From: Octopus vulgaris
Lineage: Eukaryota
Direction: 5' to 3'
Length of the DNA: 64,000 nt
Assembly (NCBI GenBank): GCA_951406725.2
Contig: OX597835.1
Location: 27,280,001 to 27,344,000, forward strand
A program made the position numbers and the translations under genes. The notes under the pieces are model-generated. The model was not told the DNA's origin, searched no databases, and saw only the letters and a list, made by a program, of their open reading frames with translations. Each line of letters opens with the position of its first letter. Position 1 is the stretch's first letter. Below, piece after piece: positions 3,628 to 42,056 of this stretch.

Positions 3628-5651
3628 TATCAATTTTTCTTTCGCAAAGTTTAATTCAAGAAATATGTACTCAAATGAAAAATAACTGAATAATCCTTCA
3701 GTATAATGTTAAACTGTTTTTATATTAAAACTTGGAAATTTTTACGGCTGTAATTAGTCTCTTCGGTAAAAGTTGTCGAATCTATACACAAACGGCCTCA
3801 TCTGACAAAACGGAAGGGACAATATAGAAACGACAGGCAAGGATACCTGAATGTCTTGCATAAATATAAAACATTACAAAACGTTAATTAAATCAGTTTG
3901 ATTAGTCTTAATTAGCACATGTCCCCTGGCTGGCTCAAAGTTATTCACACAAGATATGTGAAATCCCTGGAAGTTTGCAGAAATTCTAAGATATGTTGTT
4001 TCATGTTTATAAACAGTAATTAACTCGAGTTTGATTAAGCTTCGTAAATTACCAAAGTAAAATTATAAATAATTCGTAAATTAGGAGGAATATGGTGTAT
4101 CGTTTCTATGGTCCCTTTCGTTTTAAAGATGTTCTACATTACTCCTTTATTGCTTAGAAAGTTTCAATGACATGACAAGATACTTATATGAGCAGGTGAG
4201 TAAGCCTTCGAGAAAAATTTAATAGAATTAGAGAAATATATAGTGTAATAAATTGGATAGTTCAAATGTTATTTCTTTTGGCGTACCTACAAGTGATGTG
4301 TAACAGTATATATTTGTGCACGCCCAGTAATTTTATTTTTTATATACCATTTTAAACTCTGCTGTAATCATAATCTACACTATCTGAAAGGTATTTGTGG
4401 AAGATTTCATTAAAAAATTTCCATTTTTCTTGAAGTCATGAAGAAACAAAATCGGTGGGGTACATTTGTGTAGGTATGCCCTCTTCGTTACTAATTAGAA
4501 GTTTGAATGGAGGTAGCATAGCGATTATTAAACATGAGCAGGTAGATAGGATTTTAAAAGAATTTTAGTATCAAAATTAGAGAAATATATAATGTAATAA
4601 AATTAGTAACTAGACGTTCAAATTACTTTAATTTTATTTGTTTTTATCATCGACAATTATATTGTTTAGCTGCATTCGAATTATTTTGCATTCATTTTCA
4701 TTTGTAGTGACTTAAAAATATCAGGTTTAAAAAAAAACGAAAAGTGAAAATGGAAATAAGGGGGAAATGACAAGATTTAAAATTTTTTAAAAAGAATGTC
4801 TGAACTGTTAAAATTATAAACGGGAAAATAATTAATTCGAAGAAATATAGCATCCACTAAAGTTCAAATCGTTTTTTAACTTTTACTATTATCAGTCATT
4901 AGACTGCGGCCCCAGTATTTATTCTACCAAACCTGGTAGGTACTTATTCTATCGGTTGTTTTTGCTGAATCGCTAAGTTGCATAGAAATAAACAAACCAG
5001 CACCGGTTGTCAAGCGGTGGTAAGGGTCAAAGGCACACACACACACACATATTACATATATGTGTGTGTATTAGCTTCCTGCAGTTTCCGTCTACCAAAT
5101 CCACTCACAAGGCTTTGTGGTAGGCCCGAAGCAAGAGTAGTAGTGTTTTAACGTGCCGCGTAGTGTAACTGAACCCGAAACCATGTGGTTTCTGAACACG
5201 TTTTCTTACCACGCGGCCATACCTAAAACATGTGATTAATGCCCCATGAAGTTACTACCAAATCGTGTTTCTCGTTATATTGTTAAGTCATTATTCACTA
5301 ATTAACCTTAAAATAATAATAATAATAATAATAAATATTTTATATATTTGTTGTCGTAAAGACCCTGGATAAAAGAGACATTAAAGAAAAATGAATTAAC
5401 TTTTATTCCTTTCTGTCGTAATATCTAAGTTTAGAAAATAATTTAGAGGAGTCCTACTTCAAAGACACGAATTTCTTATACCATTTTTTGCTCACACACC
5501 ACTACCATCACCAATTTCCTCGGACCCCTGGGTTTGCGGGGTTTTTTTTTATTTAATTTTATTTTATTTCGAAAATTCTTCATGAAGCTATTTTAAATGA
5601 CAGCATTTTTTCTATATTCTGTGTGAGAGAAAGAAAGAAGGAGGGACGAAA

Positions 5652-5852
5652 ATAGATAGATAGGTAGGTAGGTAGGTAGGTAGGTAGGTAGATAGATAGG
5701 TAGGTAGGTAGGTAGATAGATAGATAGGTAGATAGATAGGTAGGTAGGTAGGTAGGTAGATAGATAGATAGGTAGGTAGATAGGTAGGTAGGTAGATAGG
5801 TAGGTAGGTAGATAGATATGTAGGTAGGTAGATAGATATGTAGGTAGGTAGG

Positions 5853-5893
<41 letters not shown>
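5652..5893. repeat. (GATA)n/(GGTA)n compound microsatellite
   Basis: Directly visible. Confidence 0.95.
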
Positions 5894-5894
<1 letters not shown>

Positions 5895-5944
5895 TGCTGT
5901 AATTTAAGATTATATTCATTAACACGAGTAATAAATAAACATAC

Positions 5945-6553
5945 CGCATCTGAGAAATTCCTTCCTAGGAACCTGGTAAACCAGTTAGCGGTGCCGGCAA
6001 AATCCAAAATCTTTTTTTCCTTCGCTATTTCTCTCGCTCTGTCTGTGATCATATCCCGTGTTAATTCATCCAGCTTATCGTTAGTATAGAAACCGTTAAT
6101 CCAGCTGGCAAGTTCCCGATCCATTTCCCGCACTCTGGTCAGTTGACGAGTTCCACGTCTCTTGGAAATGGCCTCGCCCTTGCTAGGGGTCTTCCCATTA
6201 GCCTTGGTTGTGGTGGTTCTGGTCGTCCTCGTGTTGGTGGTAGAATTAGAAACATCGTCCGCAGAATTATTATCCCGTGTGGTTTTAACAGCAGAACTTT
6301 GATTGCTCACCTCGTTGAAGTCGGGGTTAACAGAGGTGAAGGACATCGGCGAAGACACCGAAAGTTCCAGTTCCAATTCGGGTTCGGTTTCCAAATCGGG
6401 AGGTTCTTCAGCATCGACATAGTTCGATTTATCCGTCGTGGAATCCACATCTTTGTTGTTACCCGTTTGGTCGTCGTGTTCGGGTGTTTTGGCCGACAGA
6501 GAACTGTTTATGGCACCGGTGTCCTTCTGTACCGTCATCATGTCTTTGGACAT
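5945..6553 (-). CDS. Coding exon of a CENP-B-type HTH (HTH_Tnp_Tc5-like) domain protein, ~203 aa; downstream exons not identified
   Basis: ORF 5612..6652: acidic, Thr/Ser-rich N-terminus then EMDRELASWINGFY...LTRDMITDRAREIAKEKKILDFAGTANWFTRFLGRN, matching the CENP-B/pogo HTH pattern. First ATG at 6553 after an in-frame upstream stop at 6706-6704. Donor GCG|GTATGT at 5945; beyond it the ORF runs into a microsatellite. Confidence 0.8.
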
Positions 6554-7268
6554 CCTCGGTGGTTTGATGCTCAAAACCTTTATTACTATTATTAATACTA
6601 CTACTACAGACGTTACTATTTTTATTAGTGTTGCTGCTACTGACGGCAACACTGCATTTACCGTGTGTAATTGATATAATTCCTTTGTTCCACCGTCCTC
6701 CTTTCAAAGCTTCGCAACAACCAGGCGGCACAACTGCTGTCGCCGCCGACAGACGGCGCTCACTGTCATCCCATTCATTCACCCGTTTTTTTTTTTTTAA
6801 TTTTCAAATATTGTCTTAATTCATTCTTCTTACCATGATGTAACTACAGGCGTAGTTGAAAGCGCTAATATGAAGAAATAATTAGTGAAATGTAAATAAA
6901 TATATATTTTTACAACCATCAAGCATTCTGAACAACTTTTTTTTCCTTCATATCATATATATATATGTGTGTGTGTCTGTGTTTGTCCCCCCAAAATCGC
7001 TTGACAACCGATGCTGGTGTGTTCATGTCCCCGTAACTTAGCGGTTCGGCAAAATGGAGCGATAGAATAAGTACTAGGCTTACAAAGAATAAGTCCTGGG
7101 CTCAATTTGCTCGACTAAAGGCAGTGCTCCAGCATGGCTGCAATCAAATGACTGAAACAAGTAAAAGAGTAAAGAGTATATATATATATATATAAAACAA
7201 TTTAACAAATAAAACATGCATACATACATACATATATGTAAATACCTACATCTATATGTATATATACA

Positions 7269-11789: not shown

Positions 11790-12210
11790 GTGTGTATGTG
11801 TGTGTGTATATATGTATATATATATATATGTGTGTGTGTGTATGTACATATATGTATGTATATATGTATGTACATATATATACATGTACATAAGTATATA
11901 TATATATATATATGCATATATGTATGTATATATATATATATATGCATATATGTATGTATATATATATATATATGCATATATGTATGTATATATATATATA
12001 TGCATATGCATATATATATATATATATACGCATATATGTATGTATATGCATATGTATATATATATATATGCATATATGTATGTATATGCATATATATATA
12101 TGCATATATGTATGTATATGCATATATATATACGCATATATGTATGTATATACATATATATATATACGCATATATGTATGTATATATATATATATATATA
12201 CGCATATATG

Positions 12211-12250
<40 letters not shown>

Positions 12251-12264
12251 CGCATATATGTATG

Positions 12265-12297
<33 letters not shown>

Positions 12298-12317
12298 ATA
12301 TATATATATATATATAT
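11790..12317. repeat. Compound (TA)n/(TG)n/TATGCA microsatellite
   Basis: Directly visible. Confidence 0.95.
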
Positions 12318-12545
12318 AATTAATCAATATAGGGTGGCAAAAAAATTTTTTGTAGAATTCTTTTGCCACCAGCGGCCTAGTAGGAAAAAATTAAATAGTC
12401 ATAAACTATTTTTACGTTCAACATCACAATCAAGGAACGGCCATAATAGGCCATTCACCCACTAGAAATAACAGCCAAAAGCTTTAACCGCAAAATAACA
12501 TTAATTCCGTAAACCAGGAGAAAATTGAAAAACTTTTACCCTGTA

Positions 12546-12652
12546 ATTTCTTAGACGATGCACCGTTTCATCTACCGTTTAATGGTAAACTAACCTGATT
12601 AAATTAAATCAAGCCAATCCACCATAGGCCCTTAGACACATCAGTAAGAAAT
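12546..12652 (-). ncRNA. Hammerhead ribozyme copy with core substitution (CTGATGT, A9->U), probably inactive
   Basis: Reverse complement of the 13084 motif except at one core base. Confidence 0.75.
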
Positions 12653-13083
12653 AGCCAAGTCGGAACAGATATTTTTCACGAGGCATTCCTCTTGCTACCT
12701 CGGCAATATCTGACCTAAAATTTTCAAATCGTCGCACTCGCGCCAAATTTATCGGCAGCAAATAAATATAAGCCACCGATTCCATTACGGAACTAACCAG
12801 AAAATTCATAATTAATCAATATAGGGTGGCAAAAAAATTTTTTGTAGAATTCTTTTGCCACCAGCGGCCTAGTAGGAAAAAATTAAACCAGGAGAATATT
12901 GAAAAACTTTTACCCTGTAATTTCTTAGACGATGCACCGTTTCATCTACCGTTTAATGGTAAACTAACCTGATTAAATTAAATCAAGCCAATCCACGAGT
13001 GCGACGATTTGAAAATTTTAGGTCAGATATTGCCGAGGTAGCAAGAGGAATGCCTCGTGAAAAATATCTGTTCCGACTTGGCT

Positions 13084-13190
13084 ATTTCTTACTGATGAGT
13101 CTAAGGGCCTATGGTGGATTGGCTTGATTTAATTTAATCAGGTTAGTTTACCATTAAACGGTAGATGAAACGGTGCATCGTCTAAGAAAT
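13084..13190 (+). ncRNA. Type I hammerhead ribozyme, intact core; predicted cleavage after GUC at 13182
   Basis: Stem I ATTTCTTA/TAAGAAAT (8 bp), core CTGATGA, stem II GTCTA/TAGAT enclosing a long G-U-rich hairpin, GAAA, stem III ACGG-TGCA-TCGT, then C17. Confidence 0.88.
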
Positions 13191-13574
13191 TACAGGGTAA
13201 AAGTTTTTCAATTTTCTCCTGGTTTACGGAATTAATGTTATTTTGCGGTTAAAGCTTTTGGCTGTTATTTCTAGTGGGTGAATGGCCTATTATGGCCGTT
13301 CCTTGATTGTGATGTTGAACGTAAAAATAGTTTATGACTATTTAATTTTTTCCTACTAGCCGCTGGTGGCAAAAGAATTCTACAAAAAATTTTTTTGCCA
13401 CCCTATATTGATTAATTATGAATTTTCTGGTTAGTTCCGTAATGGAATCGGTGGCTTATATTTATTTGCTGCCGATAAATTTGGCGCGAGTGCGACGATT
13501 TGAAAATTTTAGGTCAGATATTGCCGAGGTAGCAAGAGGAATGCCTCGTGAAAAATATCTGTTCCGACTTGGCT

Positions 13575-13681
13575 ATTTCTTACTGATGAGTCTAAGGGCC
13601 TATGGTGGATTGGCTTGATTTAATTTAATCAGGTTAGTTTACCATTAAACGGTAGATGAAACGGTGCATCGTCTAAGAAAT
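13575..13681 (+). ncRNA. Type I hammerhead ribozyme, second tandem copy; predicted cleavage after 13673
   Basis: Identical to 13084-13190, 491 nt downstream. Confidence 0.88.
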
Positions 13682-13899
13682 TACAGGGTAAAAGTTTTTC
13701 AATTTTCTCCTGGTTTACGGAATTAATGTTATTTTGCGGTTAAAGCTTTTGGCTGTTATTTCTAGTGGGTGAATGGCCTATTATGGCCGTTCCTTGATTG
13801 TGATGATATATATATATATATATATATACGCACCCATGCTAGCATGGAAAGCGGATGCTAAATGATGATGATGATGTATATATATACATATATCATCAT

Positions 13900-18249: not shown

Positions 18250-39839
<21,590 letters not shown>

Positions 39840-41346: not shown

Positions 41347-41394
<48 letters not shown>

Positions 41395-41539
41395 GTCGAA
41401 ACTATGCATAGTCCAAAGATGATAAGGGTAAATGGTTTTATTTTCCTTTGGTTTCTGAATTACAACTATTTAGCGGTTTGAGTTTAGCTGCTCTTTCTAG
41501 TGGATCGAATGGCCTATCAAGACCATTCCTTAATATTGT

Positions 41540-41601
<62 letters not shown>

Positions 41602-41651
41602 TATAGGAAAGAATGGAACTGAACGAAGATTTAACAAAATTCCTTTATTTT

Positions 41652-41737
41652 ATTTTCGACATAGGTTTCGAAGTCTGCAAAATCCCTAATTCCGAATGAA
41701 TAAGGAGTCCATTATGCAGCTTTCTCTTCAGGAAAAT
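41652..41737 (-). ncRNA. Type I hammerhead ribozyme with extended stem II
   Basis: ATTTTC CTGAAGA GAAAGCTGCA...TGCAGACTTC GAAA CCTATG TC GAAAAT. Stem I is a perfect 6 bp, stem II is extended with an inner hairpin, stem III is minimal, cleavage triplet is GUC. Confidence 0.8.
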
Positions 41738-42016
41738 CCAGGAACTTCTTTCGCCAACAAAATGCACAACAAGTGCACAACTTTGCAGACTTCGAAACCT
41801 ATGTCGAAAATAAAATAAAGGAATTTTGTTAAATCTTCGTTCAGCTCCATTCTTTCCTATACTTATTATATTAAATTAAACTTCAAATTTCCGCACTAAG
41901 GCACGGAGTATATGCCCTATGGTCGTAACTTCAACCGTGCCCTTTCTGTTGTGAGTTTGCTACCCAGGTATCGGTTATCTTTCGAATTATCCGTAATAAG
42001 ATAATTCATTTATCTA

Positions 42017-42056
<40 letters not shown>

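Follow-up and report, generated by a model that had tools for sequence, protein, structure and literature searches.

The retrozyme class, the hypothesis that retrozyme RNAs are copied as circles and a link to Penelope-like elements (PLEs) are already in print, and the way in which animal retrozymes are copied into DNA is debated. The founding paper, in its available text, proposes circles, names PLEs as strong candidates only and gives no insertion anatomy (the word "inverted" has no occurrence there; Cervera 2020, PMC7229834). A 2026 preprint, in the accessible part of its text, draws the PLE link from co-occurrence and pseudo-LTR homology, with no mollusc sampled (Li 2026, 10.64898/2026.07.22.740005). 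For PLEs themselves, the available text of Craig 2021 describes partial tandems, an inverted 5'-truncated copy, a tail of 30-40 bp at one end and a bias to microsatellites, and that of Frangieh 2024 (PMC11167929) shows a PLE enzyme that cuts and extends both strands, with two internal start sites on the RNA delimiting the tail. Amphibian satellite hammerheads cleave better as dimers, and a dimer design of animal hammerheads has been described (PMC4209133), according to the accessible portions of these reports. A giant squid paper (one of PMC6962438 and PMC10886601) counts 235 Hammerhead_1 matches and describes no element in the text available.

Here we analyze the window, a 64,000-nt stretch of Octopus vulgaris DNA that carries an insertion of a retrozyme family that we call family A. 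We consider it highly likely that this is a non-autonomous non-LTR retrozyme riding on an endonuclease-bearing PLE, with mixed linear and multimeric RNA templates. In the available texts on retrozymes, hammerheads and PLEs, we found nothing on family A or on 5' ends at a cleavage site; within these searches, the insertion anatomy and the cleavage footprint described below appear not to be in print, and the supplement of Cervera 2020 may list further invertebrate retrozymes.

A two-armed insertion with intact hammerheads

The insertion occupies 12316-13805 and consists of two head-to-head, 5'-truncated arms whose 3' ends point outward into (AT)n, with a long AT-type microsatellite (11796-12315) on the left side of the target and an (AT)n tract (13806-13828) on its right side. 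The plus arm (12996-13805, plus strand) runs through unit positions 305-491, 1-491 and 1-132 (1.6 units) and stops at a first fixed end, and the minus arm (12316-12996, minus strand) runs through 423-491 and 1-44, jumps to 159-491, continues through 1-237 and stops at a second fixed end. An earlier reading of the window, made from the letters alone (the sequence-only reading), began the element at 12996 and missed the inverted arm; because this arm occupies 12316-12996, the insertion begins at 12316. The complete 491-nt unit (13183-13673, plus strand) lies between two predicted cleavage sites, has 36.5% G+C and contains no tRNA-like part. The second hammerhead lies at +491, in agreement with the monomer between 13182 and 13673 that had been proposed. 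The segment between the fixed 3' ends, at unit 131 and unit 237, forms a 106-nt "tail" (13314-13419, plus strand), and we infer that the two ends are start sites of reverse transcription. The repeated stretches 12996-13314 and 13487-13805 are identical, with 0 mismatches. At 13359, the plus arm lacks one G that is present in the minus arm and in 34 of 34 loci, which is either a private deletion or an assembly error.

The insertion contains at least two tandem units with a complete type I hammerhead in each; the unit is short, low in GC, non-coding and without LTRs, and the copies of the family are dispersed and mobile, with target duplications of more than 4 bp where present, as in non-LTR retrozymes. 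The reading frame for RT plus GIY-YIG that marks an autonomous endonuclease-bearing (EN+) PLE is absent from it. The longest ATG frame in the unit encodes 66 aa and has no counterpart of at least 30 aa in a sister family (family B); we reject it as a gene, and the earlier statement that the monomer holds no credible ORF stands. In addition, the unit carries TTTGGCGCG at 13478-13490, and both family B and PLE family L091, the latter in its 3' region, keep similar letters. We take this motif to resemble an E2F site, and it is a possible internal promoter.

Two identical type I hammerheads with intact cores lie on the plus strand at 13084-13190 and 13575-13681, with predicted cleavage after 13182 and 13673, as had been read from the letters. 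In the first, stem I has 8 bp (13084-13091 with 13183-13190), the core comprises CUGAUGA (13092-13098) and GAA plus A (13167-13170), and the GUC site has C17 at 13182; helix III (13170-13181, plus strand) is the self-complementary ACGG-UGCA-UCGU. These are the parts listed in the sequence-only reading. Stem II begins with five pairs (GUCUA/UAGAU), followed by a 7x7 internal loop and an extension (13111-13154, plus strand) that has the 19 bp first assigned to it, 13 of them Watson-Crick and 6 of them G-U instead of about 7. Two further hairpins of the sequence-only reading, UUGCC-GAGG-UAGCAA and UUCCGU-A-AUGGAA, are missing from the predicted folds. A third hammerhead, on the minus arm (12546-12652, minus strand; site between 12554 and 12553), has core position A9 changed, at 12638, and is probably impaired.

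Within the window, a hammerhead descriptor matches the 2 intact copies and nothing else, and it has 0 matches in each of 30 random 64-kb sequences with matched dinucleotide make-up. The Rfam scan of the window gives no match at the gathering score. A search with Hammerhead_1 (RF00163), which the sequence-only reading had suggested, does match both copies at full length, but at 22 bits (E 0.025) against a cut-off of 34; the long stem II falls outside the 45-position model. The core features of RF00163 are all present, namely CUGANGA, GAA, A15.1-U16.1, H17, a three-helix junction and an open helix I. The monomer folds with a z score of -4.5. The lowest-energy fold conceals the core, the hammerhead fold is 3.9 kcal/mol costlier, and pair 10.1-11.1 is G-U or A-U, not the usual G-C; the predicted fold cost and this pair would speak against fast cleavage. 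Helix III is predicted at -0.2 kcal/mol as a hairpin and at -17.5 kcal/mol as a 12-bp duplex joining two ribozymes. It is probably a dimer design, with the junctions cut by ribozyme dimers.

The window holds other features. Two exons of a DNase II gene lie on the minus strand at 25707-26039 and 29665-29991 (Pfam E 5e-22 and 5.5e-10); the remainder of the gene would lie toward the retrozyme, which may be intronic. A 363-codon open frame at 5612-6703 (minus strand) has a weak Tc5/CENP-B-type DNA-binding match (E 9e-4, below the cut-off), and an Atlas search with the frame at 5615-6703 gave no usable match.

Family size and selection on the ribozyme

We searched a genome of 2.8 Gb in 227 contigs. 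A DNA search in which 40 of 946 candidates were scored gave at least 223 matches, the full-length ones 95-100% identical, and the exact core pattern of family A has 2,254 matches genome-wide. Its 3' ends adjoin ATAT 495 times at unit 131 and 779 times at unit 237, and the reversed-pattern controls for both ends give 0 matches. Well over 700 insertions belong to this young family of non-LTR retrozymes, the window copy among them, and the young, non-autonomous family of tandem hammerheads proposed in the sequence-only reading is supported. The unit in the window shares 92-96% identity with subfamilies of family A and 67-68% with sister family B. Family B came to light through a fragment at about 41385-41542 and has a unit length of 470-472 nt and 1,940 candidates.

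At the 11 fixed core positions, we counted 2 changes in 154 hammerhead copies with distinct context, a set in which some overlapping loci may appear more than once. Variation is found at N7 (all four bases), at 10.1 (G in 107, A in 47) and at position 17 (C in 129, A in 25), which are positions where hammerheads tolerate variation. In an alignment of six A and two B units, both-sided changes occur in 15 of 135 predicted pairs of a structure derived from the same aligned sequences, which exceeds 500 of 500 shuffles and every slid control. The compensatory changes between A and B include stems I, II and III, and the independent events are few because only two families are compared. Family B and one A subfamily keep the full self-complementarity of helix III through double changes. 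Judged from the sequences of its copies, the hammerhead is under selection. Conservation and covariation among genomic copies, by which the first interpretation was to be judged, are both found, and its suggestion of selection at the RNA level agrees with a core that varies only where hammerheads tolerate it and with a strand-specific fold (predicted circle, -141.8 kcal/mol sense versus -91.5 kcal/mol antisense).

Other hammerhead copies lie nearby and elsewhere in the genome. The fragment at 41385-41542 (plus strand) is a family B copy that lies in (AT)n, is truncated at its 5' end and retains the 3' half of the hammerhead. A third family at 41603-42020 also lies in (AT)n with two arms arranged in the same way, and its tail appears to be longer still; its hammerhead (41739-41650, minus strand) has a predicted site after 41658 and a loop 3 that is no longer palindromic. 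Further unrelated type I hammerhead families occur at L061, L079, L084, L087, L111, L197 and L208, mostly with a long stem II and a palindromic helix III.

Insertion anatomy across loci

We compared 34 loci chosen by best match. Head-to-head arms are found in 22 of them, and 19 of these 22 pair an end near 131 with an end near 237; the other 3 have one odd end, and none has two ends alike. At least one end lies within (AT)n at 31 of the 34 loci, and two loci outside microsatellites, L017 and L034, have target duplications of 12 and 14 bp. The inner (5') ends differ between loci, single-armed copies are common, and within a locus both arms carry one haplotype. Family B has the same two 3' ends as family A; its first end reads 143 because the alignment extends into the AT tract. 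The inverted 5'-truncated arm, the one-sided tail and the microsatellite target are together the insertion anatomy of PLEs. The sequence-only reading contained neither the inverted arm nor the pair of fixed ends nor the (AT)n target, and these features hold most of the mechanistic information.

Some arrays have a more complex make-up. At L165, L018 and L046, unit variants within one arm return every 3 or 4 units, a pattern that multimeric circles or duplications of blocks would give. At L002, L033, L044 and L109, the arms are patchworks of unit and neighboring sequence, which are probably consensus errors at single-haplotype insertions; the arms that appear corrupt are the minus arm of L033 and the plus arms of L044 and L002. 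We considered L109 as a retrozyme-PLE chimera and rejected it, since its far part mixes the two sequences, which we ascribe to an artefact of assembly.

5' ends pile up inside the cleavage site

The 5' ends were examined in 60 loci taken in genome order on contig C1 (the first 30 matches per end pattern), which gave 99 arms after removal of duplicates, 86 of them with a standard 3' end and 81 with a visible 5' end. Unit positions 1-20 hold 17 of the 81 ends against 3.8 expected from exposure, while positions 472-491, on the other side of the cleavage site, hold 3 of 81 against 3.3 expected. With one arm per locus, and with five duplicate loci and L126 (whose arm escaped detection) excluded, 13 of 49 ends fall in 1-30 against 3.6 expected (p 4e-5). 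The excess in 1-30 is found in each end class (6 of 26 in the 131 set and 8 of 28 in the 237 set), and the junctions in the pile-up were confirmed by eye. The pile-up is also seen after several units, at L018, L032, L036, L045, L119 and L165. Among arms beyond the first junction the excess is smaller, with 12 of 99 ends against 4.4 expected, and it is not significant in the set not selected for full units, which has 4 of 47 against 1.8 (p 0.1), three short or corrupt arms being left out of these counts. The simplest reading is that the pile-up would be the genomic footprint of linear RNA templates cut by the ribozyme, and that the template pool would be mixed, with cut linear monomers and multimers besides templates with intact junctions.

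The same pile-up could arise from a transcription start, from RT stalling or from microhomology joining, with the retrozyme-PLE reading otherwise kept. The ends are indeed scattered over 1-36 rather than set at 1, and the AT-rich hairpin of unit 13-40 provides microhomology and may contribute to the excess at the 8 loci whose two arms both end there. However, the edge at the cleavage site is sharp (in the one-arm-per-locus set, 3 ends in 462-491 against 3.1 expected), the hairpins at 183-220 and 420-463, although stronger, have no surplus of ends, 9 of the 24 ends within 1-40 adjoin either (AT)n or a remote part of the opposite arm, and L032 has its two arms joined head to head exactly at the cleavage site, position 1. 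An origin of the pile-up other than cleavage is therefore unlikely. We also considered a collision of two RTs on one RNA and rejected it: the 5' ends follow no such rule, and there is no excess at 131-237.

A second alternative is that the templates are circles only, the excised monomer being ligated and the circle copied round and round into tandem arrays (Cervera 2020). The intact junctions fit this model: 46 of the 67 arms reaching position 40 continue past the first junction, 129 of 131 unit junctions are without any altered letter, and arrays reach 7 to 9 units; internal priming also fits a template without a 3' end, and mussel, coral and axolotl retrozymes form circles, according to the accessible literature. 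In addition, some variants are seen in one sampled locus only, in all its units and both arms (L018, L020, L031, L039 and L041), which favors a bottleneck of a single unit such as a circle. These private variants may, however, mark source loci that were not sampled, as about 90 of more than 700 insertions were seen. A circle has no 5' end, yet the 5' ends pile up at unit 1-30, also after several units, and the mosaic arrays at L002, L032, L036, L041, L045, L046 and L050 (7 loci) are impossible from one monomer circle without later conversion and favor multimers or such conversion. Circles as the sole template are thus distinctly unlikely. As one component of the mixed pool proposed here, circles seem somewhat more probable than not, by analogy with other retrozymes.

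Other data bear on the form of the template without dividing the models. The unit register between arms shows mixed patterns that do not separate circles from multimers. Parts of the unit are found in 20 of 23 sequence records, of which none is recorded as RNA and 14 are guessed to be RNA. Four runs compared with a rotated unit cover 29 of 29 bins and contain the unit-to-unit joint in 4 of 4; their contigs span the cleavage site with no pile of ends, which cannot separate circle from tandem or RNA from DNA.

PLEs as the probable driver

GIY-YIG and protein searches identified four young RT plus GIY-YIG PLE families in this genome, with many open frames of 775-785 codons. The protein of PLE P0001 has a GIY-YIG match, an RVT_1 match just under the cut-off, PLE-like Atlas neighbors and a CxxxxCxxC linker, which belongs to Neptune and Nematis PLEs (Craig 2021, available text). 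All four families end in (AT)n, have tails of about 30-35 nt and carry minimal hammerhead-like motifs, read by eye. With its PLE-type arms, fixed ends and (AT)n target, the retrozyme is very probably moved by PLEs, a property that the sequence-only reading gave as background on such elements.

The young PLEs have features of their own. At L162:768-4471, and also at L156-L163 and L208-L218, there are two overlapping frames of about 440-480 and 775-785 codons, and a T run in the overlap suggests a frameshift rather than the usual single ORF. The 3' region at L162:4620-5010 contains repeated GATGACGTC and GATTGG motifs, which presumably resemble CRE and CCAAT promoter elements.

The similarity to PLE termini could also mean that the unit is a detached pseudo-LTR of an autonomous PLE, with hammerhead and ends inherited and the monomer RNA irrelevant. 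The ends, tail, inverted arm and target match PLE termini, and the terminal repeats of PLEs in this genome, including an intact element, measure about 500 bp, with 99-100% identity between them in several copies. For Xenopus, the available text of the 2026 preprint (10.64898/2026.07.22.740005) gives matches to known elements, PLE termini for the most part, for 24 of 57 retrozyme families. Against this, the PLE bodies of 79 loci of the four young families contain no retrozyme A or B sequence, the sole similarity being a separate retrozyme fragment at L078, and none of 25 free 5' junctions is a retrozyme-PLE chimera. Because there is neither shared sequence nor any join, the unit is not a terminal repeat of these four families, and to that extent the first interpretation, for which the unit had to be more than the end of an autonomous PLE, holds. 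The hammerhead-like motifs of the four families are different and minimal, upstream of every arm examined there is nothing but further unit sequence, the second arm or target DNA, and the structure conserved with family B is that of the whole unit and not just of its end. An origin as a detached pseudo-LTR is therefore quite improbable. Finally, a DNA-level foldback, MITE-like repeat or satellite with an incidental ribozyme look-alike, which the long inverted repeats of the insertion would suit, is largely refuted already and has a negligible chance of being correct, because the two ends are unlike (131 and 237), the inner ends vary, single-armed copies are common, the fold is strand-specific and the core is conserved by ribozyme rules.

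Discussion

We propose that family A is copied by a PLE from a mixed pool of RNA templates. Retrozyme arrays would be transcribed into multimers, and hammerheads, for which selection is seen in the copies, would cut some of the junctions, probably as dimers. The products would be linear monomers and shorter multimers, and some monomers may be ligated to circles. A putative PLE RT-endonuclease would make a staggered cut in (AT)n and both DNA 3' ends would prime, as the two-armed anatomy suggests, within the RNA, at unit 131 for one arm and at unit 237 for the other. By analogy with the start sites in the accessible text of Frangieh 2024, we infer that the retrozyme is primed in the same manner, with a 106-nt tail; the length of this tail, against 30-40 nt in PLEs as far as their published descriptions are accessible, counts against the proposed mechanism, and so do the negative results on sequence similarity and chimeras for the four young PLE families. 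The cDNA would run to the 5' end of the RNA, often dropping off at a ribozyme-cut end, in line with the observed pile-up, and would otherwise continue through intact junctions, and the two cDNAs would be joined head to head. A cut linear monomer would yield a dead copy without a ribozyme, and active arrays would come only from multimers or circles.

A broader view, which we hold tentatively and at slightly less than even chances, is that animal retrozymes can be SINE-like passengers without sequence kinship to their driver, family A offering its own paired starts 106 nt apart to a PLE enzyme that primes from both cut strands. If this view is true, the genome records the types of template used, cut linear RNAs on the one hand and templates with intact junctions (multimers, perhaps circles) on the other, and provides direct genomic evidence for germ-line hammerhead cleavage and for PLE-type mobilisation. 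It would also account for target priming on a circular RNA, which has no 3' end, and the several long-stem-II families of this genome, unrelated to one another, would each have captured the same machinery independently. Family A supplies insertion footprints, statistics of cut templates, two start sites and intact candidate enzymes in the same genome, and since an in vitro PLE assay exists, linear, multimeric and circular templates can be compared directly. In addition, scans at the Rfam threshold miss thousands of long-stem-II hammerheads in such genomes.

The family is placed as follows among the known systems, each compared through the accessible part of its literature. Like the retrozymes of Cervera 2020 (PMC7229834), it has tandem low-GC units with one type I hammerhead each and no ORF, a structured monomer, a palindromic loop 3 and, where visible, target duplications of more than 4 bp. 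In contrast to theirs, its 10.1-11.1 pair is G-U or A-U, and its stem II measures 68 nt against a 4-bp helix with a small loop, which agrees with the atypical length noted in the sequence-only reading. The comparatively long monomer claimed there holds against the 170-400 nt of Cervera 2020, which the 491-nt unit exceeds, but not against the 51-972 bp of Li 2026. As in the vertebrate retrozymes of Li 2026, at least two consecutive units contain a complete hammerhead and the family co-occurs with PLEs, but the link is made here through insertion footprints, and none of the four young PLEs has homology to the unit.

Amphibian satellite hammerheads (newt satellite 2, axolotl) share the weak helix III and the palindromic loop, whereas helix III here has 4 pairs and the arrays are short and dispersed instead of forming a large satellite. 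With the EN+ PLEs (Neptune and Nematis; Craig 2021, Frangieh 2024, PMC11167929), the family shares partial tandems, an inverted 5'-truncated copy, a one-ended tail, a microsatellite bias and what would be two internal RT start sites and the cutting and extension of both strands. It differs from them in lacking an RT and an endonuclease, in its tail of 106 nt instead of 30-40 nt, and in its full hammerhead in place of the minimal type of PLEs. The anole PLE uses mainly uncut RNA in vitro (Frangieh 2024), whereas the retrozyme shows the putative footprint of cut RNA.
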